A model generated the notes under the pieces. The model did not search any database and was not told the DNA's origin. It saw only the letters and a list, made by a program, of their open reading frames with translations. A stretch of DNA of 64,000 bases from Bacteroidales bacterium (lineage in GTDB: Bacteria > Bacteroidota > Bacteroidia > Bacteroidales > VadinHA17), in NCBI GenBank assembly GCA_021163295.1, contig JAGGXD010000012.1, positions 65-64,064 of the forward strand, in the 5' to 3' direction. Made by a program: the position numbers and the translations under genes. Below are positions 20,217 through 37,500 of this stretch, in pieces. Each line of letters opens with the position of its first letter. Position 1 is the first letter of the stretch.

Positions 20217-22625
20217 TTATTCATATCTTAACGATTCAATCGGATTTCTTCGCGCAAACCGCCAGCTTCTCCATGTGACAGTAAATAGTGCAATTAACAC
20301 GGCTATAATTCCTGCCATCGCAAATATCCACCATGCGATATTAATCCGATATGCAAAATTCTGTATCCATTTGTTCATGATCAGGTAGGATACCGGGCAA
20401 GCCAGAATAAAAGCAAAAATAACCCAAATTAAAAATTCACCGTTAAGTAGAAGTAAAATATCCCTAGCCCTTGCTCCGTTTACTTTTCGTAAGCTAATTT
20501 CCTTTGACCGTTTCGCAACCAACATCCCTGTCAGTCCCAGTAAACCAAGGCAGGAAAGAAAGATCGCCACTATAGCTGAATATCCTGTAATTTTCCCCCA
20601 CCGCTTCTGATCAAGGTACTGGTCGGCCAGGTTCTGGTCAAGGAATGAATAATTAATTAAATATTCCGGCACAACTTCATCCCAGGCTGTTTTTATCTGG
20701 TCCAATGCCCCGGCAGTATTCTGTTCATCGATCCGGACAAAAATACTCCAGATACTGTTCCAGTTGGCGACAGTCATTATAAGAGGTTGGATTTTGTCCC
20801 TCATTGAATCATAATGAAAATCCCTGACCACTCCCATTATCTCAACTTTGAAGCCTGCATATGTAAAAGTATATCCGATTGGTTCTTCAAGTTCAAAAGT
20901 TTTTACGAATGTTTCGTTAACCAGTACCATGGGAATGGAATCATCCTTATGATTTGGGAGGAAATTCATTCCCATTATTAATTCAAGGCGTAAGGTATTC
21001 GTATAATCAGGATCGATCCGGAGTATTCGGGTGGATATCAATTCGCCTTTATGGTTTCTTATTTCGTCAGAACTGCTTCCGCCTACAAAATTACGGTCAC
21101 TTGTTGTAACGTTTTTAATCAATGGGTATTGCTGCAGTTTATCTTTTAAGAGCATGGTTTTTGAAATGGGAAAATCAACGGCTAAAACAACAACATTTTC
21201 CTTGTCAAAGCCCACCGGTTGATTCAACATATAATTCATTTGCCTTACAATAATTCCTGTTGTTATCATTAATACAATAGATATGAAGTATTGCAATATG
21301 ACAAATGTCCTGGCGAACCGGTAACGTTTTCCTATTGAGATCTCGTTCTTAAGAATGGAGAGAGGGTTGCTGTGACGCAACAGGAAAAATGCAACATAAC
21401 TGCTGGTTGAAAAAACAATTATTATAAGGATAATAACCAGGAAGAGTATCCCAATCCAATCCTTATACATAGTAAAACTCAAATCCTTATTAGCAAGGTT
21501 ATTGAAAACCGGCAACAATTGCTCTGCAAAAACAATTCCAAGAAACATAGCCAGGATAACAAGCATAAAAGATTCACTTAAAAAATGTTTGATGATATGT
21601 GATTTACAGGCACCAAGAATTTTCATAACCCCCACTTCTTTTAACCTCTCCATTGATTGACCAATAGCCAGCATGATATAATTGATGCTGGCAATGGCAA
21701 GAATTATTAGAGCAATAACAGAAAGAATTATAGTGTTTTGACGATTTCCCATAATTTCATAACCCCAGTTTGTATGACTGGAATTCAGATATACATCTTT
21801 CAGGGGCTGAAACCGGATTGCAAAATTATCTTCACTTTCAATTAATGATCCAAAATGTACTAGATTTTTAATAATCTCACCAAAATATTTGTCGTTTAAT
21901 GAGTTGGCAGTTTCTTCTGCCTGTTGCAGTGCCTCCTTGTTTTTCAACTGAACATAAACCGAATTTGATCCGAATTGATTATTACTCCGCGAATAATATC
22001 GGCAGTTAGGAAAAGGAACCAGGACTGTAAACCGGAATGAGGAAATATCACTGCAATTATCAATTATCCCTTCTATAGTATATTCATTCGGCGAAGGCTG
22101 CGGAAACCTTATACTTTGTCCTATCAGGTCTGAATAGTTCGGAATAGCGTTACTAAGAAGTTTGTCGGCTACTTCTTTACTTATAACAACACTCTGTGGT
22201 TTTTCCAGTATGCTGTCCGATTGCATTTCAATTACCGGAAAACTAAACATCTTAAGGAAATCAGGATGAACAAACCCAATTATTTCCCTGAAATTTTTCT
22301 CTCCAAACCGGACCCATACCCTGGCATGCCGGTAGACAGAACTTCGTTCTACCCCGGGGATATCTTCCTTGTATCCCTCAACAATTGAATGAGGTTGAAA
22401 AGAAGTAAAATCTACATCTCCCGTCTCTTTGACAAAACGTGTAGTTACCCTGTAGATATTATCCCGGTTTTTATGAAACATGTTGTAACTCGTTTCGTGC
22501 TGAACATAAATAAAAATCATAATACAACAAGCTATCCCAAAACCCAGTCCCAGGATATTTATGACGGAATGAAACCATTGCCTTACTAGGTTCCTTTTCG
22601 ATAGTTTCAGGTAATGTTTGATCAT
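20217..22625 (-). CDS. FtsX/MacB-type ABC transporter permease (duplicated FtsX domain, large periplasmic domains); no ATPase gene adjacent
   Basis: 802 aa with N-terminus MIKHYLKLSKRNLVRQWFHS, typical of the family, and two 4-TM FtsX-like blocks. Confidence 0.85.
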   Translation of the reverse strand: MIKHYLKLSKRNLVRQWFHSVINILGLGFGIACCIMIFIYVQHETSYNMFHKNRDNIYRVTTRFVKETGDVDFTSFQPHSIVEGYKEDIPGVERSSVYRHARVWVRFGEKNFREIIGFVHPDFLKMFSFPVIEMQSDSILEKPQSVVISKEVADKLLSNAIPNYSDLIGQSIRFPQPSPNEYTIEGIIDNCSDISSFRFTVLVPFPNCRYYSRSNNQFGSNSVYVQLKNKEALQQAEETANSLNDKYFGEIIKNLVHFGSLIESEDNFAIRFQPLKDVYLNSSHTNWGYEIMGNRQNTIILSVIALIILAIASINYIMLAIGQSMERLKEVGVMKILGACKSHIIKHFLSESFMLVILAMFLGIVFAEQLLPVFNNLANKDLSFTMYKDWIGILFLVIILIIIVFSTSSYVAFFLLRHSNPLSILKNEISIGKRYRFARTFVILQYFISIVLMITTGIIVRQMNYMLNQPVGFDKENVVVLAVDFPISKTMLLKDKLQQYPLIKNVTTSDRNFVGGSSSDEIRNHKGELISTRILRIDPDYTNTLRLELIMGMNFLPNHKDDSIPMVLVNETFVKTFELEEPIGYTFTYAGFKVEIMGVVRDFHYDSMRDKIQPLIMTVANWNSIWSIFVRIDEQNTAGALDQIKTAWDEVVPEYLINYSFLDQNLADQYLDQKRWGKITGYSAIVAIFLSCLGLLGLTGMLVAKRSKEISLRKVNGARARDILLLLNGEFLIWVIFAFILACPVSYLIMNKWIQNFAYRINIAWWIFAMAGIIAVLIALFTVTWRSWRFARRNPIESLRYE

Positions 22626-22799: not shown

Positions 22800-22838
22800 G
22801 AATTTTGTATCTTGATCCTTTTTAATAAAAGAAATCCT

Positions 22839-24206
22839 ATGGTAAAAGGCAAATTGCTTATCATCGATGATAATGTGCAAATCCTGGAATCATTAAAAAT
22901 CTTACTGAATGGTGAATTTAATATTCTGGAAACGCTTCGGAAGCCTGATTTGATTCCTGAAAAATTGCAACATCAATCCTTTGATATTATTCTTATGGAC
23001 ATGAATTTTGAGATAGGTGAAACTTCGGGTCAGGAAGGTATGTACTGGTTAAAGAAGATCATAAAGAATGATCCCCTTGCTATCGTAATCCTGATAACAG
23101 CCTTTGGCGATATTGAACTCACTGTTGAAGCCATGAAACTGGGTGCAACAGATTTTATTACAAAGCCCTGGAATCCTGACAAGTTGATTGCTACTTTGAA
23201 TAGCGGATATGAACTCAGAAAATCCAGGCTTGAGAACCGGAATTTGCGTGATAAACAGCTTCAGCTTACGAGTGAGATAGATAAAAATTTCAGCATGTTT
23301 ACCGGTTTGACCGTAGATATGAAAAGGATTCTTGAAACCGTGAATAAAGTTGCCGGAACCGATGCAAATATTCTCATTCTGGGCGAAAACGGAACAGGGA
23401 AAGAGGTAATAGCCAGAGAAATACACAGGCAATCAGATCGCGCTGAAGAAGTATTTATCAGTGTCGATCTGGCAGCATTAAGTGAATCATTATTTGAAAG
23501 TGAAATGTTCGGTCATGTCAAAGGGGCTTTTACTGATGCCAGGGAGGATCGTGCCGGCCGGTTTGAAGTGGCAAATGGAGGCACTTTGTTTTTGGATGAG
23601 ATCGGAAATCTTTCCCTTTCCATTCAGTCAAAGCTCCTCCAGGTCCTGCAAAACAGGGAAGTTATCAGGGTTGGGGCAACTCAACCTGTTCCTGTCGATA
23701 TCCGGTTAATTTCAGCAACGAACAAACCCATTCATCAAATGGTTTCCGAACAGACTTTCCGTGAGGATCTTTTTTTCAGGATCAATACAATAAAAATTGA
23801 GATCCCTCCTCTTCGGGAGCGCATCCCGGATATTCCCGGACTGACTGATTTTTTCCTGAAAGAATATACCCGGAAATATGAAAAACCATTTCTGAAAATA
23901 AACAGCAAAGCTATGGATAAGCTTTGCAGCTATACATGGCCTGGTAATGTGAGGGAACTGAAACATACAATGGAAAAATCTGTCATCCTTTGCGAAAGTT
24001 CTACTATCAAACCTGAAGACTTAAATCTGTCAGCAGGTATTTCGACAAATAAAACCGGTAAGATCACTTACAAATTATCGAATATGGAGAAGAATACTAT
24101 TACGAGAGTTATTAAAGAATGCAGGGGCAATTATTCTAAAGCAGCAAAAATGCTGGGTATCTCACGGACAACTTTATATGCGAAAATTAAAAAATATGGG
24201 TTATAA
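22839..24206 (+). CDS. Sigma54-dependent response regulator (NtrC family: receiver, AAA+ and Fis HTH domains)
   Basis: Receiver domain (LLIIDDN...ILMDMNF), Walker A GENGTGKE, a GAFTDA loop, and the C-terminal HTH AAKMLGISRTTLYAKIKKYGL. The track ORF starts at 22812. Confidence 0.9.
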   Translation: MVKGKLLIIDDNVQILESLKILLNGEFNILETLRKPDLIPEKLQHQSFDIILMDMNFEIGETSGQEGMYWLKKIIKNDPLAIVILITAFGDIELTVEAMKLGATDFITKPWNPDKLIATLNSGYELRKSRLENRNLRDKQLQLTSEIDKNFSMFTGLTVDMKRILETVNKVAGTDANILILGENGTGKEVIAREIHRQSDRAEEVFISVDLAALSESLFESEMFGHVKGAFTDAREDRAGRFEVANGGTLFLDEIGNLSLSIQSKLLQVLQNREVIRVGATQPVPVDIRLISATNKPIHQMVSEQTFREDLFFRINTIKIEIPPLRERIPDIPGLTDFFLKEYTRKYEKPFLKINSKAMDKLCSYTWPGNVRELKHTMEKSVILCESSTIKPEDLNLSAGISTNKTGKITYKLSNMEKNTITRVIKECRGNYSKAAKMLGISRTTLYAKIKKYGL

Positions 24207-25545
24207 CCGCTTTTATATCAATGTTTTTCTTAATGTTTTTTTGATTGCTGCCGCTTACCTGGCATTTATATTCTTTCTGTTTATCAGGGATCAGCCGGCA
24301 ACAGCAATATTGTTTGGATTCTTTGCTGTTTTTTTCACCGGAAGATTAATCTACTATATAAACAGGACCAACAGGATGTTAGACAATTTCATCATCTTCA
24401 TGAAGGAACATGATCCCACGCTTACGATATCTTCACGATTTGTTAAGAAAACATTTCATGGGTTTTATCACAATCTGCAGAAAATTGAAGATGAGATGAA
24501 AGAGAGTCGGATTGAGAAAGAAATACAGGCAAAATATCTGCATACAATTGTGGAAAATGTACAAACCGGGATTGTTACTTTAAATAAAAATAATGAAGTT
24601 GAACTCATAAATAAAGCAGCAAAAAATTATCTTGGTGTAACTCAGTTACGGCATCTGTCTGAACTAAACAAAACACATTCCGGACTAGTTGCCAGGATCA
24701 GGGATCTGAATCCGGGTGAGCAAATACTGGAGAAATTAACTATTCATGGGAAAACTCACTGTTTATCCATAAAAGGATCATTTATTAAAAGCAAGGGAGA
24801 GCCATATACTATCATTACCTTTAACGACATTAAAAATGAGCTCGAAGAACAAGAGATACATTCATGGAAGAAGCTAATACGCATTATAACACATGAGATC
24901 ATGAATTCCATCACACCCATTACCACACTTACCGGTGCTATTAAACGAAAATTAAGCGAGAGGAAGGGGGAGAGGGAAATCGTTGAATATACTTCCCTGG
25001 AAATTCAGGATGCGCTTTCAGGTATGGATATTATTGAAGAAAGAAGCCGGGGCGTAATTCATTTCATTAGCCAGTACAGAAAACTAACGAAACTACCCCC
25101 ATTACAAATAACGGGATTTGGTATTACCGATTTGTTCGATAAGATTAAGTACTTGTTCAAAGAGCAACTCAAAGATTCAGGAATCAGATTTTACACAGAC
25201 GTAAGAAACGTAAAAGTCCTACATGCAGATAAAAAGATGGTGGAGCAGATACTGATCAATTTGGTTAAAAATGCCATTGAGGCATTGAACAGGATTCACT
25301 CTCCGTTTATTGAAATGAAGGCATTTACTGATCCTGAATATCGCACCATACTTCATATCGAAGATAATGGCCATGGCATTCCTGCGAAATATCTGGAACA
25401 TGTATTTGTGCCGTTCTTTACCACCAGGGAACAGGGATCAGGGATCGGCTTAAGCCTGAGTAAACAGATTATGCGATTACATAAGGGGGATATTGCTTTG
25501 TTCTCAGAGGAGGGAAAAGGCACAAGGGTTGTTTTAAAGTTTTAA
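24178..25545 (+). CDS. Sensor histidine kinase (2 TM, PAS-like domain, HisKA, HATPase_c)
   Basis: H-box ITHEIMNSITPI, N-box LINLVKNAIEA, G-boxes DNGHGI and GSGIGLS. The start may instead be the ATG at 24196. Confidence 0.9.
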   Translation: MRKLKNMGYNRFYINVFLNVFLIAAAYLAFIFFLFIRDQPATAILFGFFAVFFTGRLIYYINRTNRMLDNFIIFMKEHDPTLTISSRFVKKTFHGFYHNLQKIEDEMKESRIEKEIQAKYLHTIVENVQTGIVTLNKNNEVELINKAAKNYLGVTQLRHLSELNKTHSGLVARIRDLNPGEQILEKLTIHGKTHCLSIKGSFIKSKGEPYTIITFNDIKNELEEQEIHSWKKLIRIITHEIMNSITPITTLTGAIKRKLSERKGEREIVEYTSLEIQDALSGMDIIEERSRGVIHFISQYRKLTKLPPLQITGFGITDLFDKIKYLFKEQLKDSGIRFYTDVRNVKVLHADKKMVEQILINLVKNAIEALNRIHSPFIEMKAFTDPEYRTILHIEDNGHGIPAKYLEHVFVPFFTTREQGSGIGLSLSKQIMRLHKGDIALFSEEGKGTRVVLKF

Positions 25546-25720: not shown

Positions 25721-25728
25721 TATTTTTG
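25721..25728 (+). promoter_or_regulatory. -7 box TATTTTTG upstream of the rrf2 operon
   Basis: Exact TAnnTTTG match, 30 nt upstream of the ATG at 25758. Confidence 0.4.
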
Positions 25729-25734
25729 TTTTTA

Positions 25735-25756
25735 AATAATACCTGGAGGTATCATT
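25735..25756. promoter_or_regulatory. 22-bp palindrome AATAATACCT-GG-AGGTATCATT between the -7 box and the rrf2 start; candidate Rrf2 operator
   Basis: The arms match at 9 of 10 positions and the core ATACCT/AGGTAT is perfect. It ends 2 nt before the ATG. Confidence 0.5.
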
Positions 25757-25757
25757 T

Positions 25758-26207
25758 ATGATTTTTTGTAAAACAACTGAGTACGCGCTTAGGATAATGA
25801 GTTATATGGCAATGAATGAAAAGAAATTGTATAGCGCGAATAATATTTATGAAAATCTAAGAATCCCCTTCAGGTATTTGCGCAAGCAGCTGACAATCTT
25901 ATCAAAAAGCGGATTAATTTTTAGCGTACAGGGGAAAAACGGAGGTTACAGGCTTTCAAAGAATTTGAGTGAAATATCTCTTTTAGACATTATTCATGCG
26001 GCAGGGGATAATCAAATTTATAATGAATGTTTTTTTGGTTTTCAGAGTTGTGCATTTAAAAAAAAGTGTGCTTTGCATTATAAATGGGAAGTTGTGATTG
26101 AAAGCATAAATAATGTTCTGATTTCTACTACCCTGGAAGAATTGAAAAAAACAGGAACTCCTGATTGTATTTCAAAAAACAGTTTAATATTCACTAAAAA
26201 CAAATAA
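25758..26207 (+). CDS. Rrf2-family transcriptional regulator with a three-Cys cluster motif (NsrR/IscR-like)
   Basis: 149 aa with a winged-HTH N-terminus (TEYALRIMSYMA...) and C-x6-C-x5-C (ECFFGFQSCAFKKKCALH). Confidence 0.85.
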   Translation: MIFCKTTEYALRIMSYMAMNEKKLYSANNIYENLRIPFRYLRKQLTILSKSGLIFSVQGKNGGYRLSKNLSEISLLDIIHAAGDNQIYNECFFGFQSCAFKKKCALHYKWEVVIESINNVLISTTLEELKKTGTPDCISKNSLIFTKNK

Positions 26208-26209
26208 TT

Positions 26210-26761
26210 ATGGTTGATTCACAAGTTGTTCTTAACGGGCAAACAATTGCATATACTTGTTATGCAATTGTAATTATCCTGGTAATGGGCTGGTTTGGTA
26301 TAAAAATTACCAGAAAAGGAAAGAGTAGCAAGTTAAGCCATGCGCTCTTTTATTCCTTTGTAGGGTTTTTGGTAGTGTTGGGAGTTTCCCTTCATATTGT
26401 AACCTATCATACAATTCCATGGGCTCGGATGGATATTAACAGGGCCGATATAAAACCGGATAAGGTTTTTAATATTACGGTTGAAGATCATCAGTTTATT
26501 CTACCGTCTGAAAAGCTGATTATTAATGTGGGCGACAAAGCCCTGTTTGATGTTACATCTAATGATCTTACCTATGGATTTGGTTTGTTCAGAAAAGATA
26601 ATTCTATGCTTTTACAGATGCAGGTTGTCCCGGGACACCGGAACGATATCTTATGGCAGTTCGATAAGCCAGGGGTATATACAATAAGATCTACAGAGTA
26701 TTCGGGGCCGAAAGGTGCCCAGATGATCTTAAAGGATGTTGTTGAAGTTATAGCAAAATAA
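26210..26761 (+). CDS. Heme-copper oxidase subunit II-like cupredoxin protein with a degenerate CuA site
   Basis: 183 aa with 2 TM helices. The C-terminus aligns to ba3 subunit II, but the CuA ligands are lost: LTYGF where ba3 has VIHGF, and STEYSGPKGAQM where ba3 has CNQYCGLGHQNM. Confidence 0.75.
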   Translation: MVDSQVVLNGQTIAYTCYAIVIILVMGWFGIKITRKGKSSKLSHALFYSFVGFLVVLGVSLHIVTYHTIPWARMDINRADIKPDKVFNITVEDHQFILPSEKLIINVGDKALFDVTSNDLTYGFGLFRKDNSMLLQMQVVPGHRNDILWQFDKPGVYTIRSTEYSGPKGAQMILKDVVEVIAK

Positions 26762-26800
26762 CAGTTTAATTTAAAAATTAAAAACTAAAACATTATAGAT

Positions 26801-28432
26801 ATGAGTTTTAAAGATACATTTATGAATGGTGAGCAAGGGCTGTTTAAGCCTGTAAGCTTAACCCCAATGCAAAAGCTTATTCTCAGGTTTGTTGTTGTTG
26901 GCCTCGTGTATTACGGATTCGCTGTAATTGAAGGAATGATCATGAGAATTTATGCAATAGAGCCAATCAAAGCCATTTCTGATTTTCAGTATTTCGCAAT
27001 ACTTACAGCCCATCCGCTTGTAGGAATAATTGGGTCAACTTATTCACTGGTATTTGGTGCATTCCTATTTCTTGTTCCTTTCCTGATGAAGAAACCGTTA
27101 TGGAGTTTTAAACTGGGTAACTGGACATTTTTATTAGTTACATTTGGAACACTGACATTCTGGTTAGCAGGGTTTATTTCGCATTATGCACCCTTATATA
27201 CGCTATATTGGCCTTTACCTGCCGATTTCAGTCAGTTTAATCCTGTGGGAGGGTCCTTTTTTATTATAGGAATTGCCCTTGTTATGTTGGGAACGATGTT
27301 TTTTGTGATCAATATATTTAAAACCATTGCCTATACACCTGAGGGTTGGGAAAAACAACCGGGCGGGGCATTGTTGGCTTCTGCAATAGGATATACCGGG
27401 TTAAGGAATTTATTCAGAAAGAAAAAAGAACAAGTGAAACATCTTGTATCACTTCCGGTTGCTGCTATTGCCAGGGGAACTGTTGACACAGCGTTAAATG
27501 CTGGAGTTCTTTTATTTACCGGGGTGCTTATTCTGGTTTATATGATTGCACATTTGCTGGGAGGTGATTTAAAAGATACCGCCATTGATGCTCTGCTTTA
27601 TAAAAATTGGTTCTGGTGGGGATTGGATTTAATTGCAGATGGATTAGTGCTGATTTTTGTTGCCGGTACATGGTATCTGTTAGCGACTATGATTACCGGC
27701 AAGAAGCTTTTTATGCAGAATATTGCCAGGGCAGCCCTTTTGGTTGAATTGATTGTATCATGGACGGTTTGGTCACACCACTTATTGTCAGATCAGGCTC
27801 AGCCGGGTTTCCTGAAAATTATTTCAGGTGAAATGGTTACTGCTTTTGAATTGATAACTCAGGGATTAGCCTTCTATATTGTCCTTGCTACTCTTTGGAG
27901 TGCCCGTCCTTTAAAAATGTCCAACGAACTTAAGTTCTTGCTTGGAGGTCTATTGGGTTTTGCACTCGCTGTTCCTGCAGGGATTATGCAGGCTGATATC
28001 GGACTGAACCGGATTTTACACAATACTCAATGGATTATTGGCCCTCATGTGCATGTTGCTATCCTGGTAGGTTTGACAATGACCCTTTATTCTGCAGTTT
28101 ATATACTTTTCCCGATTGTAACTAATGGTGCAAAATTGTACAGTCAGAAACTGGCAAACTTCCACTTCTGGGCTCACTTAATTGGTGGTATCGGCATGGG
28201 TGCTTTTATGGGCATGGCTGGTTTAGGAGGAATGCTTAGAAGAACAATCTACCTGAATGGGGAATTTAATCTTTACATGATCCTTGCCGGAATATGCGGA
28301 GGATTATTGTTATTGGCATTTCTGGTTTTCTTTTACAATATCGTAATGAGTCTTGGACTTAAAGGCGTGATAGGAATATTTACTCCGTCTAAATTAAACG
28401 TGAAGGATTTGGTGCCAGCCGAACAACAATAG
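26801..28432 (+). CDS. Heme-copper oxidoreductase subunit I, B-family-like, with an Asp/Asp substitution at the CuB-His / cross-link-Tyr positions
   Basis: 543 aa. The heme and CuB histidines are retained (LTAHPLVG, WSHHLL, HNTQWIIGPHVHV). Helix VI reads FWWGLDLIADG where B-family enzymes have FWWTGHPIVY. Confidence 0.85.
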   Translation: MSFKDTFMNGEQGLFKPVSLTPMQKLILRFVVVGLVYYGFAVIEGMIMRIYAIEPIKAISDFQYFAILTAHPLVGIIGSTYSLVFGAFLFLVPFLMKKPLWSFKLGNWTFLLVTFGTLTFWLAGFISHYAPLYTLYWPLPADFSQFNPVGGSFFIIGIALVMLGTMFFVINIFKTIAYTPEGWEKQPGGALLASAIGYTGLRNLFRKKKEQVKHLVSLPVAAIARGTVDTALNAGVLLFTGVLILVYMIAHLLGGDLKDTAIDALLYKNWFWWGLDLIADGLVLIFVAGTWYLLATMITGKKLFMQNIARAALLVELIVSWTVWSHHLLSDQAQPGFLKIISGEMVTAFELITQGLAFYIVLATLWSARPLKMSNELKFLLGGLLGFALAVPAGIMQADIGLNRILHNTQWIIGPHVHVAILVGLTMTLYSAVYILFPIVTNGAKLYSQKLANFHFWAHLIGGIGMGAFMGMAGLGGMLRRTIYLNGEFNLYMILAGICGGLLLLAFLVFFYNIVMSLGLKGVIGIFTPSKLNVKDLVPAEQQ

Positions 28433-28451
28433 GATTATCATTATATCGATT

Positions 28452-28480
28452 AAAAAGCCCGGATGTCCGGGCTTTTTTTT
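28452..28480. terminator. Bidirectional intrinsic terminator A5-GCCCGG-atgt-CCGGGC-T8
   Basis: A perfect 6-bp GC stem flanked by an A-run and a T-run. It closes the plus-strand HCO operon and the minus-strand cop operon. Confidence 0.85.
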
Positions 28481-28738: not shown

Positions 28739-31201
28739 CTATTTCCTCAAGCGCAATGCATTGGTAATTACTGATACCGAACTAAAGCTCATGGCAGCAG
28801 CAGCAATTACCGGGCTTAATAACAGTCCGAAAAAAGGGAAAAGTATTCCTGCCGCTATCGGAACTCCTAATGCATTGTAAACAAAAGCAAAAAACAAGTT
28901 CTGCTTTATATTTCGCATTACTTGAGTGCTTAAATCCCTGGCCCTGACAATACCATCCAGGTCGCCTTTCACCAGGGTGATTTCAGCGCTTTGTATGGCA
29001 ATGTCGGTACCGGTACCCATGGCAATTCCGATATTTGCCTGAGCCAGGGCAGGTGCATCATTAATACCATCGCCGGCCATGGCAACTTTATGCCCTTGTT
29101 CCTGCAACTCTTTCACTTTTTTATATTTGTCGCCGGGCAGACAATCGGCATTAAAACCATCTAAATCCAACTCGTCTGCTACCGCTTTGGCTGTAAATTT
29201 ATTGTCACCGGTAAGCATGTGTACTTTTAATCCCATTTTTTGAAGTGTTTTGATGGCTTTGGCCGAAGTTTCTTTAATCTTATCCGATACACTCACAATC
29301 CCTTCAACCTGGTGATCAATGATTAAATACATTACCGTTTGTCCGTTAAGTTGCCACTCTTGAACCAGGTTTTTCTTGTTATCATCAAGGATTGCCTGAA
29401 AATCTTCGATCAGACGGTGGTTACCTAATCCGATTTTTCCACTTTTGTAAACAGCTTGTACTCCTTTTCCGGTTACTGATTCAAATTTGTCAAGTTTAAG
29501 AAGCTCCAGGTGGTTGGCTTTTGCGCCGGCAACAATGGCATCAGCAAGCGGATGTTCACTGTTTACATCGACAGAGGCGGCCAATAGCAGGATTTCCCGA
29601 TCGCTCAGTTTCCCAAAGGATTTAAAATTATTCAGGCTTGGTCTTCCTTCAGTAATGGTGCCTGTTTTATCAATAATGAGTGTATCAATTTTATTCATTT
29701 CCTCAATGGCACGGGCGTCTTTTACCAGCACACCTGATTGAGCTCCCTTCCCTGTTCCCACCATGATGGACATGGGAGTTGCCAGTCCCAATGCACAGGG
29801 ACAGGCAATAATTAGCACGGCAACGGCATTTACAAAAGCATAGACATAAGCCGGCTCAGGGCCCCAGATGGACCAAACGGCAAACGTAATGATTGCACAG
29901 GAAATCACAATCTGTACAAAGTATTTGGCAACTGTGTCTGCCAGTTTTTGGATAGGCGCCCGGGAACGACTAGCCTGGTTCACCATTTCAATGATTTGAG
30001 CTAACAGGGTATCGCTGCCCACTTTTTCAGCCTTCATCTCAAACGCTGTTTGACCATTGATTGTTCCTCCGGTAACCTTATCTCCCTCGGTTTTATCAGC
30101 TGGAATGGGTTCACCGGTAATCATGCTTTCGTCAATTACCGCATCACCCTTATAAATGATACCATCAACGGGAATTTTTTCTCCGGGCTTTACTTTTAGA
30201 AGATCACCAACTTTTACTTCTTCTAAAGGAATTTCTTCTTCCACGCCGTTGCGGATAACCCGGGCAACGGGTGGAACTAGCCCCAATAAGGCTTTGATAG
30301 CCGAATTGGTTTTGCTGTGGGCGCGTAATTCCAATACTTGCCCCAAAAGTACCAGTGTTAATATTACTGCTGCAGCTTCAAAATACAGGTGAACATTTCC
30401 TTGTTCATCTTTGAACTGGGCAGGAAAACTATCTGGTAGCAGTAAAGCAAACACGCTAAACAGGTATGCCGCTCCTACACCAATTGATATTAGTGTCCAC
30501 ATATTTGGAGACCAACGGCGGATGGAAGCCCATCCCCGTTTAAAAAAATCCCAGCTTGAATAAAAGACAACAGGGGTTGCAAGAACAAACTGAACCCAGC
30601 CCCAGACGTTTTTAGATGCAATAGATTCGAGATGCAGAAAACTTAGAAACTCAGACATGGCTATTAAGAAAACCGGAATACTCAATGCTAAGGCAATCCA
30701 GAATTTTTTAGCCATTTTTTTATAAGCTTTCTCTTCCTCACTGGTATCTTCTCCCTTTTCCGGAACCAGATCCATTCCACATTTAGGACAGCTCCCGGTT
30801 TTTTTTTGCTTAATTTCAGGATGCATGGGACAGGTGTACGTTACCGTAGAAGTTTTATTGGTTTCCACTTTGTTCAGGTGCATCCCACAAACCGGGCAAT
30901 CACCCGGGGCATCGTAGGTCTTATCACCTTCGCATTGCATGGGGCAGTAATATTTTCCATCTACTTCAGAATCATTTGTTTTTACATGTACTCCATGGTG
31001 GTTGGGTTGGTGTTTTTGCCCATTTTCATTTTTATGGTGATGATGTTCAATACCTGGGTCTTCCACCGGTTTAAGGTGCATCCCGCAAACCGGGCAATCA
31101 CCCTGAGCATCGTAGGTTTTATCACCTTCGCAGCGCATGGGGCATGCGAATTTTTCGTTTTGTTTTTTACTTATATAATTCTGCATAACTTCATTTTTCA
31201 A
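28739..31201 (-). CDS. copA: Copper-translocating P1B-type ATPase
   Basis: 820 aa with CPC (IIACPCALGLATP), DKTGT, SEHPLA, TGDN and GDGINDAP. The N-terminus has three CxxC...CPxCGM modules and a His-rich stretch. The track uses the TTG at 31201; an ATG at 31186 is also possible. Confidence 0.95.
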   Translation of the reverse strand: MKNEVMQNYISKKQNEKFACPMRCEGDKTYDAQGDCPVCGMHLKPVEDPGIEHHHHKNENGQKHQPNHHGVHVKTNDSEVDGKYYCPMQCEGDKTYDAPGDCPVCGMHLNKVETNKTSTVTYTCPMHPEIKQKKTGSCPKCGMDLVPEKGEDTSEEEKAYKKMAKKFWIALALSIPVFLIAMSEFLSFLHLESIASKNVWGWVQFVLATPVVFYSSWDFFKRGWASIRRWSPNMWTLISIGVGAAYLFSVFALLLPDSFPAQFKDEQGNVHLYFEAAAVILTLVLLGQVLELRAHSKTNSAIKALLGLVPPVARVIRNGVEEEIPLEEVKVGDLLKVKPGEKIPVDGIIYKGDAVIDESMITGEPIPADKTEGDKVTGGTINGQTAFEMKAEKVGSDTLLAQIIEMVNQASRSRAPIQKLADTVAKYFVQIVISCAIITFAVWSIWGPEPAYVYAFVNAVAVLIIACPCALGLATPMSIMVGTGKGAQSGVLVKDARAIEEMNKIDTLIIDKTGTITEGRPSLNNFKSFGKLSDREILLLAASVDVNSEHPLADAIVAGAKANHLELLKLDKFESVTGKGVQAVYKSGKIGLGNHRLIEDFQAILDDNKKNLVQEWQLNGQTVMYLIIDHQVEGIVSVSDKIKETSAKAIKTLQKMGLKVHMLTGDNKFTAKAVADELDLDGFNADCLPGDKYKKVKELQEQGHKVAMAGDGINDAPALAQANIGIAMGTGTDIAIQSAEITLVKGDLDGIVRARDLSTQVMRNIKQNLFFAFVYNALGVPIAAGILFPFFGLLLSPVIAAAAMSFSSVSVITNALRLRK

Positions 31202-31340
31202 TGTTTATGTTCTTTTTTATTATCATTCCTTTTTGTTTCATTTTTTGCATCATCTCGGGATTTTCTTTCATCATCCCCATCATATTACTGTTTTCTTCCA
31301 TCATCATCATGGCATGTTCGTTACCTTTCATATTTTTCAT
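31191..31340 (-). CDS. Unannotated Met-rich mini-protein (49 aa, 14 Met) between the cusB-like gene and copA
   Basis: Manual translation gives MKNMKGNEHAMMMMEENSNMMGMMKENPEMMQKMKQKGMIIKKNINIEK. It starts 16 nt after the cusB-like stop, and its stop lies 4 nt before the copA ATG at 31186. Confidence 0.55.
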   Translation of the reverse strand: MKNMKGNEHAMMMMEENSNMMGMMKENPEMMQKMKQKGMIIKKNINIEK

Positions 31341-31356
31341 GATTATCTTTTTATTA

Positions 31357-33186
31357 TTACTTTATCGTTTGTTTTATCTCTCCACAAGTCAGCATTGTAT
31401 TGCCGAAATATGGGTTTCTAATTTTTTTTGAATCGCTGATCCAGTATGCACCTTTGTTATTAAAAGCCATGGGACAAAAATCAAGATATAAGGCACTTGT
31501 TTCAGTACTACGCACACCGAATTGATTAATAGCTTCCGACAGTTTATCCGAAACAATACTAAAATGCGAGCGTTTCATTTCTATTCCTTTCATCTGAATA
31601 ATACCATTCAGATTATCCTTGATAGGCTTTTGCAATTTCATCCATTGGTTATGTGCATCACCTTTAAGCAGTGTCATGTCAACTTTATTCAAGGCCTCAA
31701 GTGTTTTTTTAGCAACTGCTTCAACATCCTGTTCATTTGAGTCAACAAATGCATCTTTAAGTAAAAGGTACTGGCTCACCACTTCGTTAAGCTGCTTTTT
31801 AAACTTATCAGGCACCTCCATGGATTCCATATCGTGGCCCGGTTGATCAGCCTTCTTCTCCATCTCCTCCTCACTTCCTTCGCCCATATCCATACCGGCA
31901 TGATTATGACCGGTTGACACTTTTCCACCCTCTGGATTCATCATGCTTGGTTTGCCGGCAAGCTGGGCAGCAGCATCAATCTTAAATACTCCATTCATGG
32001 CTATTTCTTCGCCTTCACTCAGTTCGGAATTCACAACATAGAAATTCCCTGCTTCCGGTCCTAACACAATTTCACGGTACAGGAATGAGGGTTGGGCCCT
32101 GTCCGGAACTTTAACATACACCACGGCTCTTTTTCCCGTCCACAGAACGGATGATTTCGGGATAAGTAAATCATTTGACTGTTCGATCTCCGATTTCAAA
32201 ATACCATTTACAAACATCTCAGGTTTCAGAAGGAGTTGTGTGTTATTTAATTCCAATCTGACTTTTGCCACACGGGTCTTGGCATTGATAAAAGGGTCGA
32301 TAAAGGTAATTTTACCATTGAATTTTTTTCCGGGCAATGATTGAATTGTAAAATCAATTTTATTCCCTATCCTGATCCATGGAAGGTCACTTTCATAAGC
32401 ATCAAACATTACCCATAACCGGGTCAGGTTTATCACTTCAAATAACGGATTTCCTTCTTTAACATAATCACCCAGCGAAACATGACGCATGGTTACAGTT
32501 CCTGAAATTGGTGACAAAATCTCGAAATAATGCTGAGTGACACCACTGTTCTCAAGGTCATCGATCTGCTTTTCGTTTAGATCCCATAATTTCAGTTTTG
32601 TTCTTGTTGCTTTATAGAATCCGGGATTGGTTTCCTTATATTTAGCAGCCTCAAGTAATTCTTTCTGGGCTGCAATCAATTCCGGGGAATAGATGGCGGC
32701 AAGCTTCTGTCCCTTCTTTACATTTTGCCCGGTAAAGTTCACGAACAACTTCTCTATACGTCCTCCGAATCTGGCTGTAAGTTCAGATATATTTCTTTCA
32801 TCGGGTCTTACTTTTCCCAGAAGGTAAACTGTTTTCTCAGGTTTCCCTTTTATAACAGTTGTTGTCTGGATGCTTGCAAGCTTTATTGCAGCTTCTGTCA
32901 TAGCAATCTCATCAGCAGAGACTTCCTCTTCTGTCCGCAGGTCGGTTACAGGAATAAGGTCCATCCCGCAGATGGGACACTGGCCTGGTTCATCCATTCT
33001 TATCTGTGGATGCATTGAACATGTCCATATGCTTTCCGCTGACTCACCTTCATGGCTGTGTTCTGCAATTTCTTTTCCGGAAGATATACCACCTGAATTA
33101 TGAAAAAACAGCCAACCGAGGAATAACCCTGCAATCAGGGTAATACCTGTTATTATTAATTCTCTTTTGTTAATTTTTGTTTTCAT
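31357..33186 (-). CDS. RND periplasmic adaptor (CusB-like) with an N-terminal CxxC...CPxCGM metal-binding module and a C-terminal helical DUF3347-like extension
   Basis: 609 aa with WTCSMHPQIRMDEPGQCPICGMDL, a lipoyl/beta-barrel MFP core, and a His/Met-rich linker (GHNHAGMDMGEGSEEEMEKK). Confidence 0.85.
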   Translation of the reverse strand: MKTKINKRELIITGITLIAGLFLGWLFFHNSGGISSGKEIAEHSHEGESAESIWTCSMHPQIRMDEPGQCPICGMDLIPVTDLRTEEEVSADEIAMTEAAIKLASIQTTTVIKGKPEKTVYLLGKVRPDERNISELTARFGGRIEKLFVNFTGQNVKKGQKLAAIYSPELIAAQKELLEAAKYKETNPGFYKATRTKLKLWDLNEKQIDDLENSGVTQHYFEILSPISGTVTMRHVSLGDYVKEGNPLFEVINLTRLWVMFDAYESDLPWIRIGNKIDFTIQSLPGKKFNGKITFIDPFINAKTRVAKVRLELNNTQLLLKPEMFVNGILKSEIEQSNDLLIPKSSVLWTGKRAVVYVKVPDRAQPSFLYREIVLGPEAGNFYVVNSELSEGEEIAMNGVFKIDAAAQLAGKPSMMNPEGGKVSTGHNHAGMDMGEGSEEEMEKKADQPGHDMESMEVPDKFKKQLNEVVSQYLLLKDAFVDSNEQDVEAVAKKTLEALNKVDMTLLKGDAHNQWMKLQKPIKDNLNGIIQMKGIEMKRSHFSIVSDKLSEAINQFGVRSTETSALYLDFCPMAFNNKGAYWISDSKKIRNPYFGNTMLTCGEIKQTIK

Positions 33187-33225
33187 GATATTATTACTCT
33201 TTTATTAAATACTTTTTACTACCCT

Positions 33226-33316
33226 CTCCCTGAGGAGGTGTTCCGATGGTAGTCGGAACGGTGGGAGTTCCACCAGACAATGCCAGGACTTAAAAGAGAA
33301 CTGGCAGGTCTTTTTT
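33226..33316 (-). other. GC-rich intercistronic element with four consecutive hairpins
   Basis: Stems are CTCC/GGAG (33226-37), GTTCCGA/TCGGAAC (33240-59), GGTGG/CCACC (33260-74) and TGCCAG/CTGGCA (33281-306). The plus strand then has a T6 run. Confidence 0.5.
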
Positions 33317-33319
33317 CCT

Positions 33320-34579
33320 TTATTTTCCGGTTAAATATTTTGAAAACGAAACGGCTGCATTTTGATCTGTTCTGGCTTTTTCCAACTCCAGTGCGTAAAG
33401 CAGCACTTTGCGTTCCATTCTCAAAATCTCTTCAAACCCGGTATTATCTGTAACATACTCCGTTTCAAGCAATTGCATTGCTCTAAGTGCAAGTGTAGTC
33501 TGCACCTGGTACAATTCCATCCTTCTGGCAGCATCATTGTAATCTTTATAAATATTTTCGAATAAAGATTCGAGTAAATTTATCCTGTCAGTCTTTTTAT
33601 CTTCAACTACTTGCTGAAGCAACACTGCTTCCTTTACCATTGAGTTATATTTTTTCCTGTACAGCGGAATAGAAATGCCGATCCTGGGGAATAGAATAGC
33701 ATCTTTCCCTGATTCTGAAAGGCTCAGTGAAGGATTACTACTTTCACCTGTAAAAATATAGTCGATGCCAATTGAGATATTCGGAAGTCCTGTTTTCCTG
33801 GCAGCTAACTCCTTACTTTTAAATGAACTCATTTCGAAATCGAGGCTTAATAACTGATGGTTATTTGACCGGATACTGTCCAACACGGCCTGCTTATCAG
33901 AAGGCAGATTATCACTCCACAGTGTATCAGGTAAGTGAATAACAGAGACCTCATCAATATTTAAAAGATTATTAAACACCACCGTTTTGGCAAAATACCG
34001 GTCACGTAAAAGAGCCAGCCTGTTCTCTATATCAGCAATTTCCATTTCAATCCTCAGTTCATCAACTGCCGATGCAAGGCCTGCTTCCACCTTTATCAGG
34101 GCAAGCCTTTTAAAAGTATTCAGGATATCAATATTTTCTCTTGTAATCCTTATTGCTTTATCAATAAAATATAATTCGAAGTAATTTATACTAACATCGT
34201 AGTATAATCTTGATTTAGCTTCCTCGAAAGTCTCATATTTTACTTTTGCTTTTTGAATAGCTACATCCTCGCTGGCTTTCAAGCGCCCGAACCAGGGAAA
34301 CATCTGACTTACCGATATTTTAGCTTTTTGTGGCCCCACTCTTGTCTCAACGGGATGAATAAAATATCCGAAGGCAAATTGCATATCAGGTAAGGTATTT
34401 ACCTGTGATGCTATCTCCAGTGTGGCCATATATTCATTAAATTTTGCCTTCAATCCCGGATTGTTTTCAGCGGCTGTCACAAGGTAATTGCTCAGGATAT
34501 CCTGCCCTTTTCCTTCTATGGTAATTAAAGAATAAGAAATAAGCAAGACCAGATAGATATATATTATATTCATTTTCAT
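33320..34579 (-). CDS. TolC-family outer-membrane efflux protein (CusC-like position)
   Basis: 419 aa with a signal peptide and duplicated coiled-coil/beta repeats typical of OEP proteins. Confidence 0.85.
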   Translation of the reverse strand: MKMNIIYIYLVLLISYSLITIEGKGQDILSNYLVTAAENNPGLKAKFNEYMATLEIASQVNTLPDMQFAFGYFIHPVETRVGPQKAKISVSQMFPWFGRLKASEDVAIQKAKVKYETFEEAKSRLYYDVSINYFELYFIDKAIRITRENIDILNTFKRLALIKVEAGLASAVDELRIEMEIADIENRLALLRDRYFAKTVVFNNLLNIDEVSVIHLPDTLWSDNLPSDKQAVLDSIRSNNHQLLSLDFEMSSFKSKELAARKTGLPNISIGIDYIFTGESSNPSLSLSESGKDAILFPRIGISIPLYRKKYNSMVKEAVLLQQVVEDKKTDRINLLESLFENIYKDYNDAARRMELYQVQTTLALRAMQLLETEYVTDNTGFEEILRMERKVLLYALELEKARTDQNAAVSFSKYLTGK

Positions 34580-34583
34580 ACTT

Positions 34584-37500
34584 TTATCTTCTTTTTTTTA
34601 TGTTTTTTATTTTTCGTTCCTGCCACAAACTGTAAAGCAACGGCACTACGAACATAGTAATTACCTGCAGGAGCATGCCACCGAATGACGGGATGGCCAT
34701 TGGGACCATAATGTCAGACCCTTTACCAACAGATGTCAGGACTGGTATCAACGCAATTATAGCTACTGAGGCGGTCATCATGGCCGGCCTTACCCTTTTA
34801 CTTCCTGCGTGTAACACTGACTCACGTATTTTTTCCACGGTTTTTGGTTTTTCCTTTTCAAATACCTGCATCAGATATGTTCCCATAATAACACCATCGT
34901 CGGTGGCAATGCCAAACAGTGCGATAAAACCAACCCAGACTGCCACACTAAGGTTTATGGGATGCATCTGGAAGAGATCTCGCATATTCACACCTGCAAT
35001 CGAAAAATTCATGAACCAACCCTGGCTATATAACCAGATCATTATAAACCCTCCTGCAAAAGCCACGAATATGCCTGTAAATACCATAGATGAAGTTGCA
35101 ACAGAACGGAACTGGAAATAAAGAATTAGAAAAATCACCATCAGGGAAATAGGAACCACAAGCAACAATCGTTTTGTTGCCCTGATCTGGTTCTCATAAT
35201 TTCCTGTAAATATGTATTTAACTCCGGCAGGAACAACAAACTCGCCGGATTCAATTTTCACTTCGAGATATTTTTGAGCATCCTCCACCACGTTAACTTC
35301 TGCCCGGTCTGCCACCTTATCAAAGATCACATATCCCACAAGGAAAGTATCTTCACTTTTAATCAACTGCGGGCCACGGGTGTATGTGAATTTTGCCAAC
35401 TCTCCAAGTGGAACCTGAACACCCGAGGGTGTAGGGATAAGAATAGTTTTCAGATCCTCAGGGTTATCTCTGTATTCCCGGGCATAACGTACTCTTACAG
35501 GGAAACGTTCACGTCCCTCCACGGTATTTGTAAGGGCCATTCCTCCGATGGCACTGCTCAGGAAAGTCTGTAAATCTTTGATGGTTAATCCATACCTGGA
35601 TATTGCTTTCCGGTTAATATCGATCTCCAGGTAAGGTTTTCCAACCACCCTGTCGGCAAATACCGATGCGGGTTTTATACCGGGGACTTCTTTAAGGAAC
35701 TTTTCAATGTCGAAACCAACCTTTTCAATGGTTCCGAGATCGGGTCCGTAAACCTTTATCCCCATTGGTGCACGCATACCAGTTTGTAACATGATCAGGC
35801 GAGTCTGAATAGGCTGTAATTTCGGTGCAGAGGTCAAACCTGGAATAGAGGATTTCTTTAAGATCTCTTTCCATATATCATCGGGCGATTTGATGTGTTC
35901 TCTCCATTGCCTGAAATATTTCCCCTTTTCGTCGTATATCAGGTTTTCATGATCGATCTCAAGAAAACCATCTTTTGCCGGATCATATTTGCTTCCGTCT
36001 TTAAGAATAAAAGCATCATTCTTATCCACCTTGAAACGCATTCTTCGCCCATATTCATCCAACATATATTCCGGCTTGTAATTTATAACATTCTCATACA
36101 TGGATATAGGTGCAGGGTCAAGTGCAGAATTCACCCTCCCCCATTTGCCTACTACGCTTTCAACCTCGGGAATGGAATTCACACGCAGATCGAGCATTTT
36201 GATTACTTCAAGGTTTTCTTCTATTCCGGAATGAGGCATGGTTGTGGGCATTAAAAGGAAGGAACCTTCATCCAGGGCCGGCATAAATTCTTTTCCCACC
36301 CCGGGAATTACTTTATTCATTGTCTGCCATCCTTTTGTTTCCCGCAGGTTCCAGCCCAGTTTCTCAAAACCATTCGGGATAAAACCAAATACTTTGTCAA
36401 AACCCTGCCAGGTAGTGACCCCGAAAAGGATCAGGATAACCGGCACTAAAAGAAATTTTACTTTGTTATCGAGTACCCATTTCAGAATAACCGGATAAAA
36501 ATGAACGATGGTCATTAGAAGGCCCAAAACAGTCCCTGTGATAGCGATAACAAAAATAAAGTTTGAAAGTGTGCTGTTCTGAGCGCCAAGTGGCATCCAT
36601 TCCACTGTAAGGAAGTAAACAATAACCAGGATTGTAACCCCAATATTTATTAAGTTCACAAAATACTTTTTATTCACCGGCCATCTATTTTTCAGTAAAT
36701 TATTTACACCAAAGGCAACCAGTGCAACAGCCGCCCATGAACCAAAGCCTATCGAAAAAATCAGCCCGGCCGCGATCAATGTTATATTCCATATCCGGCT
36801 CATTCTTTTCTTATCGAATCTTATTGAAAATAGAATATGTGAAAAAGCCGGGATGAAAACGATCCCTATAAGCAGGGATGATAGCAATGCAAATGTTTTG
36901 GTAAAGGCCAGTGGACGGAACAATTTTCCTTCGGTAGCCTGCATGGCAAAAACAGGCAGAAAACTTACTATGGTAGTTGCCAGGGCTGTCATGATAGCCG
37001 AAGCCACCTCTATTGTTGCCCGGTACACCACGTCAAGCAATTGCTTTCCCTTTATGTCTTTGTTTTCCGGCATATCGAGATGCCTCACTATATTTTCGGT
37101 AAATATAATACCTACATCTACCATAACTCCAATGGCAATGGCTATTCCTGACAGGGCTACAATATTGGCATCTACTCCAAACTGGCGCATGGTAATAAAA
37201 GTAATAAGCACACCCAGAGGCAACAGGCCTGAGATCAGTACGGAAGCCCTGAGGTTCAGAACCAGCATAATCACTACAATGATACTAATGAGTATCTCAT
37301 GGGTAAGGGCTGATTCAAGGGTACCCAATGTTTCTTTAATAAGGCCGGTGCGGTCGTAAAAAGGAACAATTGTAACTTTTGAAATGGTTCCGTCATCCAG
37401 CGTCTTTGACGGCAGACCGGTAGATACTTCTTTAATTTTTTCTTTTACATTATTTATAACCTTAAGCGGATTGGCACCGAAGCGGGCCACAACAACACCA

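Follow-up and report, generated by a model that had tools for sequence, protein, structure and literature searches.

A probable gNOR operon with an adjoining Rrf2-family regulator gene and a recurrent predicted operator in a Bacteroidales bacterium

We analysed a 64,000-nt stretch (hereafter, the window) of contig JAGGXD010000012.1 from a Bacteroidales bacterium (assembly GCA_021163295.1), which has a G+C content of 38%. The feature under study, at positions 25721-28480, contains three open reading frames (ORFs) on the same strand (25758-26207, 26210-26761 and 26801-28432), which encode a regulator of the Rrf2 family and two subunits of a heme-copper oxidoreductase (HCO) that very probably represents the gNOR family, a group proposed to reduce nitric oxide (NO). 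Because the gaps between the genes are 2 nt and 39 nt, the three genes were read as one operon. Its features are the following:

25721..25728, + strand: -7 promoter box of the Bacteroidetes type (TAnnTTTG), TATTTTTG; read from the sequence
25735..25756, no strand: operator-like imperfect palindrome of 22 bp, AATAATACCTGGAGGTATCATT; pattern and weight-matrix match
25758..26207, + strand: Rrf2-family regulator, 149 aa, with putative iron-sulfur (Fe-S) ligands C91, C98, C104 and H107; Pfam Rrf2, E=4e-30
26210..26761, + strand: subunit II-like protein, 183 aa, with an N-terminal membrane anchor and a cupredoxin domain without CuA ligands; weak COX2/CoxB matches
26801..28432, + strand: gNOR-type HCO subunit I, 543 aa; Pfam COX1, E=2.8e-52
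28452..28480, no strand: bidirectional intrinsic terminator with an 11-bp stem, AAAAAGCCCGG/CCGGGCTTTTT, set between an A-run and a T-run; RNA folding

The initial annotation of this DNA had described three co-directional genes behind a TAnnTTTG box and a palindrome and closed by a bidirectional terminator, and all of these elements are indeed in place, with the palindrome being imperfect. The terminator hairpin (28452-28477) together with its T-run has folding energies of -17.3 (+ strand) and -17.8 kcal/mol (- strand), with z of about -5 for both strands, and none of 200 shuffled sequences folds as well as the actual one. A simple consensus terminator scan missed the hairpin at 28452-28477, and an Rfam scan of the window returned no match.

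Subunit I carries every motif that had been named initially, including LTAHPLVG (H71), FWWGLDLIADG (D276 and D280), WSHHLL (H326 and H327) and HNTQWIIGPHVHV (H407, H416 and H418), and, in agreement with the same source, there is no His anywhere in helix VI (residues 264-299 of the predicted model). Conservation was assessed in 240 full-length relatives from bacteria and archaea, which are 41-100% identical to the protein. Both Asp residues of the D-x3-D motif, D276 and D280, are invariant in all 240, as are W272, G274, L275, A279, G281, H71, H326, H327, H407, H416 and H418. The two Asp are also kept in every family fragment found among the cluster representatives of the exhaustive search described below, in which the motif reads WWGLD[LM][IV]ADG.

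The register of helix VI is fixed by the W272 column in a MAFFT alignment, by the spacing of residues along the helix and by a gapless alignment to one relative. In the MAFFT alignment with B-like proteins, FWWGLDLIADG pairs with LWFFGHPVVY, which puts D276 on the His of the GH pair and D280 on the Tyr. W272, located four residues before the metal ligand, is the sole helix VI column that is invariant across all HCO families aligned, and W272, D276 and D280 are spaced i, i+4, i+8, just as the Trp, His and Tyr of the canonical face are. The relative in question, the sNOR-like P0202, is a closer relative from metagenome-assembled genomes (MAGs) of Nitrospinota/Nitrospirota and has the motifs WWGLHSYVN and HHLLMD. 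BLASTP aligns residues 262-321 to it without gaps, with WWGLDLIAD opposite WWGLHSYVN, such that D276 faces the His of the CuB/FeB site and D280 faces the Asn at the Tyr position. The proposed replacement of both the CuB His and the cross-linked Tyr by Asp is upheld by this gapless alignment and by W272. HMMER and hhalign alignments to A- and B-family oxidases had also been considered as a basis for the register and were dropped, given that they yielded three different placements of the helix VI gaps. As a separate observation, P0202 (472 aa) has G-YVH opposite GPHVH, that is, a Tyr at the expected proximal His of the catalytic heme; this could reflect an artefact of the alignment or, alternatively, an unusual heme ligand.

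An AlphaFold2 model of subunit I, built from an 80-sequence alignment, has a predicted local distance difference test score of 84.5 and a predicted template modelling (TM) score of 0.88, and matches solved oxidase subunit I structures, including those of the aa3 and bo3 enzymes, with TM scores of 0.75-0.78. A single-sequence phmmer search of the PDB sequences with subunit I gave no match; with the family profile, A- and B-family oxidases match ahead of cbb3. The COX1 match, the predicted fold and the best non-family matches, which are B-like or sNOR-like, place the protein on the B-family side of the HCO superfamily. H71 and H418 are predicted to hold the low-spin heme and H416 the high-spin heme, and the predicted metal site, opposite the heme that H416 holds, consists of D276, D280, H326 and H327. 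Such a site would be expected to bind Fe rather than Cu.

The gNOR family is said to have been defined by sequence in 2008, by Sievert et al. and by Hemp and Gennis. In the sequence-based account of 2024, Murali et al. (PMC11214002) describe it as the sole HCO family to replace an active-site His, with Asp in its place, and ascribe to it a probable quinol site and a cupredoxin subunit that lacks the ligands of CuA. NO reduction has been proposed in the same paper by reference to a 2-His-1-Glu heme/non-heme iron mimic which, as summarized there, reduces NO (Lin et al., 2010). Other sources list D at the Tyr site of gNOR (PMC8756737, Table A4, after Hemp & Gennis, 2008) and describe a quinone-oxidising, non-electrogenic enzyme encoded by norGH genes (PMC8906906), with DAMO_1118-1119 of Ca. 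Methylomirabilis oxyfera being the example cited in the literature. The initial annotation had mentioned a 'gNOR' family with a His-to-Asp change at the CuB site, and its existence is confirmed by PMC11214002 and by Table A4 of PMC8756737. Given that the published defining features of the active site and of subunit II are found here, and that there is one Asp-bearing family in our search and one in the literature, it is very probable, judging from the sequences, that the three-gene operon encodes a gNOR (norGH) member. The alternative of new HCO chemistry, also offered initially, is not favoured: the enzyme fits in as an ordinary representative of a family already published and defined by sequence.

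The family is tightly knit. The 120 best homologues of subunit I are each at least 84% identical to it. A scan of one genome per GTDB species recovered 255 stretches encoding a relative of subunit I. In the best 80 of these, which were examined, identity is 78-96%, and most of the sources belong to Bacteroidales, Prolixibacteraceae, other Bacteroidota and Ignavibacteria; the carriers among these 80 are, judged by name, mostly anaerobes. The plasmids of PLSDB gave no match. An exhaustive HMMER search of 1.84 billion cluster representatives yielded two full-length 50%-identity clusters, P0121 (75% identity) and P0123 (47%), beyond which identity falls to 24-31%, corresponding to other HCO families; in this entire set, one family alone has Asp at the His site. 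The MAGs of the P0123 branch are labelled Thermoprotei, Methanomethylicia, Actinobacteria, Anaerolineae and Dehalococcoidia. The nearest full-length matches outside the family are B-family-like (GHPxVY) and sNOR-like (WWGLH..N).

In the NCBI records, the subunit I protein is named a cbb3-type oxidase subunit. CcoN-type models give it just 50-56 bits, and because its score against the CcoN equivalog (56 bits) is so far from the cut-off of 583 (the corresponding values for CtaD are 92 and 671 bits), we regard this naming as a systematic mis-annotation, one that hides the family in genome surveys. A different HCO homologue, P0263 (462 aa), is encoded on a 55.9-kb Logan contig; its helix VI contains WVALRFYLQGG and its helix VII contains HWQHLLSD. 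Alignments place Arg at its CuB-His site and Gln at its Tyr site, with QH replacing HH, so that P0263 apparently is devoid of two of the three metal-binding His; it is unlike any HCO family named in the literature compared.

The subunit II-like protein scores 16.9 bits against Pfam COX2, under the 22-bit cut-off, and matches NCBIfam CoxB with E=6e-8; there are also weak but specific matches to SoxA and to the NosZ cupredoxin. Its gene lies directly 5' of the subunit I gene in 77 of 79 loci. At the positions of the CuA ligands, the protein has DLTYGF, with Tyr for the first His, and S-TEY-S-GPK-G-AQ-M for C-x3-C-x3-H-x2-M. An alignment of 77 subunit II sequences shows both DLTYGF and RSTEYSGP to be near-invariant (at least 97%); in it, the loop reads S-TEY-S-GPx-G-xx-M and Ser occupies both CuA-loop Cys positions, so that the earlier claim of complete replacement of the CuA Cys and His ligands extends to the family as a whole. 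Other residues of subunit II, namely, H62, H94, H143, M133, M137 and M172, are kept in 76-77 of the 77 sequences and could be involved in another metal site, quinol binding or a subunit contact. In subunit I, E44 of helix I, five residues before the general Arg49, is invariant among the relatives and, in a HMMER alignment, lies opposite the quinol-site residue D75 (E. coli numbering) of cytochrome bo3. The absence of CuA and the correspondence between E44 and D75 of bo3 are consistent with a quinol as the electron donor.

The first gene of the operon encodes an Rrf2 protein that scores 107.9 bits against NCBIfam rrf2_super, above its cut-off, and remains under the equivalog cut-offs of NsrR (44.6 versus 182 bits), IscR (63.9 versus 207.6), RirA (74.8 versus 193) and CymR. 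The ligand pattern C91-x6-C98-x5-C104 plus H107 is invariant in all 56 cassette-linked Rrf2 proteins, which are otherwise only 23-82% identical (median 43%). The Fe-S cluster of IscR is held by three Cys and one His, and the best solved relatives of the Rrf2 protein are RsrR and IscR. The C-x6-C-x5-C spacing had been correctly noted in the initial annotation, which assigned it to the NsrR/IscR class; with H107 included, the ligand set is more IscR-like than NsrR-like, and the protein is far below the cut-offs of both. The Rrf2 gene is directly 5' of the subunit II gene in 52 of 79 loci, and the order Rrf2-subunit II-subunit I recurs in these 52 loci, with flanking genes that differ almost everywhere. 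This synteny, together with the conserved operator, ties the Fe-S-type Rrf2 regulator to the enzyme, in line with what had been envisaged initially.

The palindrome at 25735-25756, whose symmetry is broken by one A/C arm pair and by the central GG, ends 1 nt before the ATG of the Rrf2 gene and spans the expected transcription start. In the window, the operator pattern has one match at 0 mismatches, with 0.19 matches expected at up to 3 mismatches. We built a weight matrix from the palindromes and scanned 81 loci and the window, about 0.86 Mb in total. All 34 operator sites recovered lie in cassette 5' regions: 31 no more than a few nt from the start codon of Rrf2, 2 before subunit II and 1 about 100 nt upstream. 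The consensus across cassettes is AATRATACC-N4-GGTATYATT, and in some lineages both arms are altered symmetrically, for example, to AATACTAC...GTAGTATT. At 25 of the 34 sites, the operator is preceded by a TAnnTTTG box whose end lies 2-8 nt (mode, 6) away, compared to about 1.3% expected by chance; since the box sits at a fixed offset upstream, the operator is taken to cover the expected transcription start. No additional copies, which would have pointed to a regulon, were found outside the cassette promoters in the fetched loci. An operator-like sequence with 2 mismatches, AATAATTCCTGTTGTTATCATT, is located inside a MacB/FtsX-type permease gene (window 21249-21270); it is below the weight-matrix threshold and is probably a chance match. 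As RNA, the palindrome at 25735-25756 folds weakly (-5.9 kcal/mol, z -1.4); the RNA-hairpin reading was rejected on these grounds, and a DNA site for a dimeric protein is favoured. The box, the palindrome and the Rrf2 gene have the layout of an autoregulated repressor, and the Rrf2 protein would be the one to bind the operator.

A Pfam survey of the genes surrounding the cassette covered the 148 nearest neighbour proteins, in which Hemerythrin (10), PAS_10 (6, fused to hemerythrin) and Crp-type regulators (4) are the families encountered most often. Hemerythrin/RIC-type and Crp-type genes are tied to NO and to the repair of iron centres, and RIC/YtfE-type proteins repair NO-damaged iron centres. 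In three loci (L023, L056 and L071), a gene immediately adjoining the cassette encodes a ScdA_N+Hemerythrin protein of the RIC/YtfE type. Among the homologues that are 41-45% identical, a hemerythrin gene is immediately 3' of the enzyme genes on one metagenome contig (L081) and about 4 kb upstream on another, from the archaeal clade (L082); Crp-type regulators, a CDF transporter and an M24 peptidase recur on contigs of Anaerolineae and related lineages (L083 and L084).

Taken together with the published proposals, these observations make derepressible, stand-alone, quinol-dependent NO detoxification the likeliest role of the enzyme. The electrons would come from membrane menaquinol, not from cytochrome c, and would pass through the low-spin heme to the high-spin heme, which would face a non-heme metal, probably Fe, held by two His and one or two carboxylates. 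At this heme/non-heme metal centre, two NO would be reduced to N2O. An Fe-S-loaded Rrf2 dimer would bind the palindrome and block its own gene along with both enzyme genes, and damage to the cluster or its nitrosylation would free Rrf2, such that the enzyme would be made only under nitrosative or redox stress. The cassette would then be a stand-alone NO-detoxification module of anaerobic sediment bacteria, outside any denitrification gene cluster. We favour, with some reserve, this overall reading of a gNOR operon with its own Rrf2 repressor as an NO-detoxification module. Of its components, the reduction of NO by the enzyme appears reasonably probable from the sequence features, and the case for NO being the signal of the Rrf2 regulator is evenly balanced.

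Several points weigh against NO detoxification by a gNOR under an NO-responsive repressor. No gNOR has been purified so far (PMC11214002), and its metal, substrate and donor are proposed ones. Assignment to gNOR follows from the defining features and not from a tree. The predicted register of helix VI relies on one bridging relative plus periodicity, not on a cofactor-bearing structure, and HMMER and hhalign place the helix VI gaps differently against A- and B-family enzymes. A preprint (10.1101/592808) attributes to gNOR a His-to-Glu change of a heme ligand, which is not seen here, with H71, H416 and H418 being invariant in 240 of 240 relatives; a Glu right after H418, present in 42 of the 240, may explain that report, and the feature is not repeated in PMC11214002. 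As for the regulator, it is not an NsrR equivalog, its set of three Cys and one His looks more like that of IscR than that of NsrR, and the Rrf2 gene is absent from 27 of the 79 loci. Finally, among the 25 Pfam families that occur most often in the 148 neighbour proteins, there is no nir, nos or hcp.

Some of these points feed alternative explanations. According to the first, the enzyme is an NO reductase, but Rrf2 senses Fe-S or iron status, redox or O2, or else the palindrome is an RNA hairpin that controls translation. That the C-x6-C-x5-C-x2-H pattern matches the three Cys and His of IscR, and that the best solved relatives are IscR and the redox sensor RsrR, fits a signal other than NO; yet, a regulator of Fe-S homeostasis is not expected to travel with an oxidoreductase through unrelated flanks. 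The hairpin version is compatible with the palindrome abutting the start codon and with some variants keeping T-G pairs. Apart from the weak folding, it is countered by the A/C mismatch of most sites, which cannot pair in RNA, by the variable centre and symmetric outer arms, typical of a dimeric protein site, and by the placement of the operator before subunit II in two loci. Altogether, we consider this explanation unlikely, although it is the strongest of the alternatives.

It is somewhat less likely still that an enzyme of the same family acts on a substrate other than NO, such as N2O, nitrite, peroxide, O2 (reduced to peroxide) or that of a sulfide-tolerant reaction peculiar to sulfidic sediments. 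The literature holds that gNOR activity has never been measured and that the active site is unique in the superfamily (PMC11214002), and gNORs are reported mainly from sulfidic habitats; the absence of nir and nos from the commonest neighbour families and the failure of the regulator to qualify as an NsrR equivalog point in the same direction. On the other hand, loss of the Tyr cofactor speaks against four-electron reduction of O2 (PMC11214002), and the 2-His-1-carboxylate heme/non-heme Fe mimic, as described in that paper, does reduce NO. Moreover, the only enriched neighbours are the hemerythrin/RIC-type and Crp-type genes. A broader variant, in which a 2-His/2-Asp centre with a metal other than Fe or with a novel HCO reaction (for instance, the sulfide-tolerant reduction of a different nitrogen or oxygen species) is combined with an Rrf2 protein of a new sensor class, with an operator of its own, in a self-contained stress module moving horizontally between anaerobic Bacteroidota, Ignavibacteriota and further phyla, seems comparably doubtful. 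An unusual quinol oxidase of the bo3 or ba3 kind, that is, an O2 reductase, would agree with the oxidase subunit I fold, with a subunit II lacking CuA, as in bo3, and with the cbb3-type name given by NCBI, but is very improbable in view of the missing cross-linked His-Tyr pair, with no sign of a migrated Tyr, the replacement of one CuB His, the low CtaD and CcoN equivalog scores and the prevalence of anaerobes, judged by name, among the carriers.

Beyond its conserved core, the cassette occurs in diverse surroundings. Across loci L001-L081, subunit I is 78-96% identical, the median identity of subunit II is 72% and that of Rrf2 is 43%. Two cassette neighbours are phage-type integrases, and a few carrier bins are labelled Acidobacteriota, Aminicenantes, Gemmatimonadaceae, Eubacteriales or Patescibacteria. 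The unrelated flanks, the integrases and the odd bin labels suggest horizontal spread, mis-binning or both. In the more distant homologue group, a Creatinase_N/Peptidase_M24 protein is repeatedly encoded beside the enzyme genes (L083, 3322-9977; L084, 1782-8068; L082, 655-1767), and L083 and L084 have a CDF cation-efflux transporter, a 96-aa protein and a Crp-type regulator in place of Rrf2; one might speculate that this CDF transporter supplies the non-heme metal. A DUF6448 protein (E of about 1e-59) is encoded just 3' of the cassette, on the opposite strand, in three loci (L004, 7848-8492; L007, 7765-8415; L033, 8264-8914).

In the window itself, the genes directly 5' of the cassette and on the same strand (22812-25545) encode a response regulator whose core is of the sigma-54 activator type (GHVKGAFTDA) and, next to it, a sensor kinase; the ORF clusters containing these response regulator and kinase proteins are found in 3 and 8 of the loci, respectively, with the kinase grouping being loose, as it is a broad family. 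Directly 3' of the cassette and convergent with it lies a heavy-metal efflux island (28739-38405, - strand), which encodes a P-type ATPase with three HMBD motifs, a CusB/HlyD-like adaptor (HMBD, DUF3347), an outer-membrane factor and a 1272-aa AcrB/CusA-like pump. A metal-efflux island thus adjoins an oxidase relative that is devoid of copper sites. This adjacency is probably coincidental, because the other loci have different flanks, with the exception of the near-identical L001.

Environmental surveys include the gNOR enzymes among the sources of N2O, a greenhouse gas, and theirs is the only active site in the superfamily to have given up a metal-binding His. Conservation within the family is tight; it is common among the Bacteroidota and Ignavibacteriota of anoxic habitats, and it usually moves as a compact three-gene cassette with a defined promoter, a predicted operator and a putative Fe-S repressor. 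No description of the Rrf2-operator-promoter unit, of the cassette behaviour or of the association with hemerythrin/RIC was found in the searchable literature. The conserved unit, the cassette behaviour and this association make the function of gNOR easier to test, and the conserved predicted operator and the short operon offer a practical route to its physiological signal, metal and chemistry.

Comparison with known systems places the enzyme closest to gNOR (norGH). The two have in common Asp in place of the active-site His, Asp at the Tyr position, a cupredoxin subunit II without CuA, a probable quinol donor, kinship with the B family and a distribution over both bacteria and archaea from habitats that are anoxic or sulfidic. 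They do not differ in any defining feature; the one discrepancy with a published account concerns the heme ligand change of the preprint. Neither an Rrf2 gene with an operator nor the dominance of Bacteroidota and Ignavibacteriota is mentioned in the gNOR literature searched.

With cNOR NorB and qNOR (Pseudomonas aeruginosa and Geobacillus stearothermophilus), the enzyme shares a heme b3/non-heme metal centre without Tyr and, in the case of qNOR, the use of a quinol, which is probable here; similarity at the sequence level is weak, as the CcoN-type scores of 50-56 bits show. A carboxylate is found at the His+4 position in both H-L-W-V-E-G of cNOR NorB and D-L-I-A-D-G here. Unlike in the cNOR and qNOR enzymes, which belong to the C-family branch, use cytochrome c or a fused N-terminal domain and hold FeB with three His and a Glu, the centre here would comprise two His and two Asp, the partner is a cupredoxin subunit and the profile is nearer to A-/B-family enzymes than to cbb3. 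The closest sequence neighbours outside the family are the ba3 oxidase of Thermus thermophilus and the sNOR/bNOR/eNOR relatives, which display the same FWW...HH...D and HNT...HxH motifs and the same two-subunit layout with a cupredoxin. Whereas ba3 has His233-Tyr237 and CuA, the enzyme analysed here has Asp at both positions (D276 and D280) and lacks the CuA Cys and His; sNOR-like proteins, for their part, keep the His and have Asn at +4.

With respect to the regulator, IscR, NsrR and RsrR resemble the cassette Rrf2 protein in the winged-helix Rrf2 fold, the three Cys in the C-terminal half and an inverted-repeat operator of about 22 bp at the regulator's own promoter, which in the present case is predicted; IscR, in addition, has a His three residues past the last Cys. 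The cassette protein differs from all three in falling below every equivalog cut-off, in its C-x6-C spacing and in the half-site ATACC/GGTAT, and it adjoins an HCO operon, whereas the comparators are associated with isc, suf or hmp genes.

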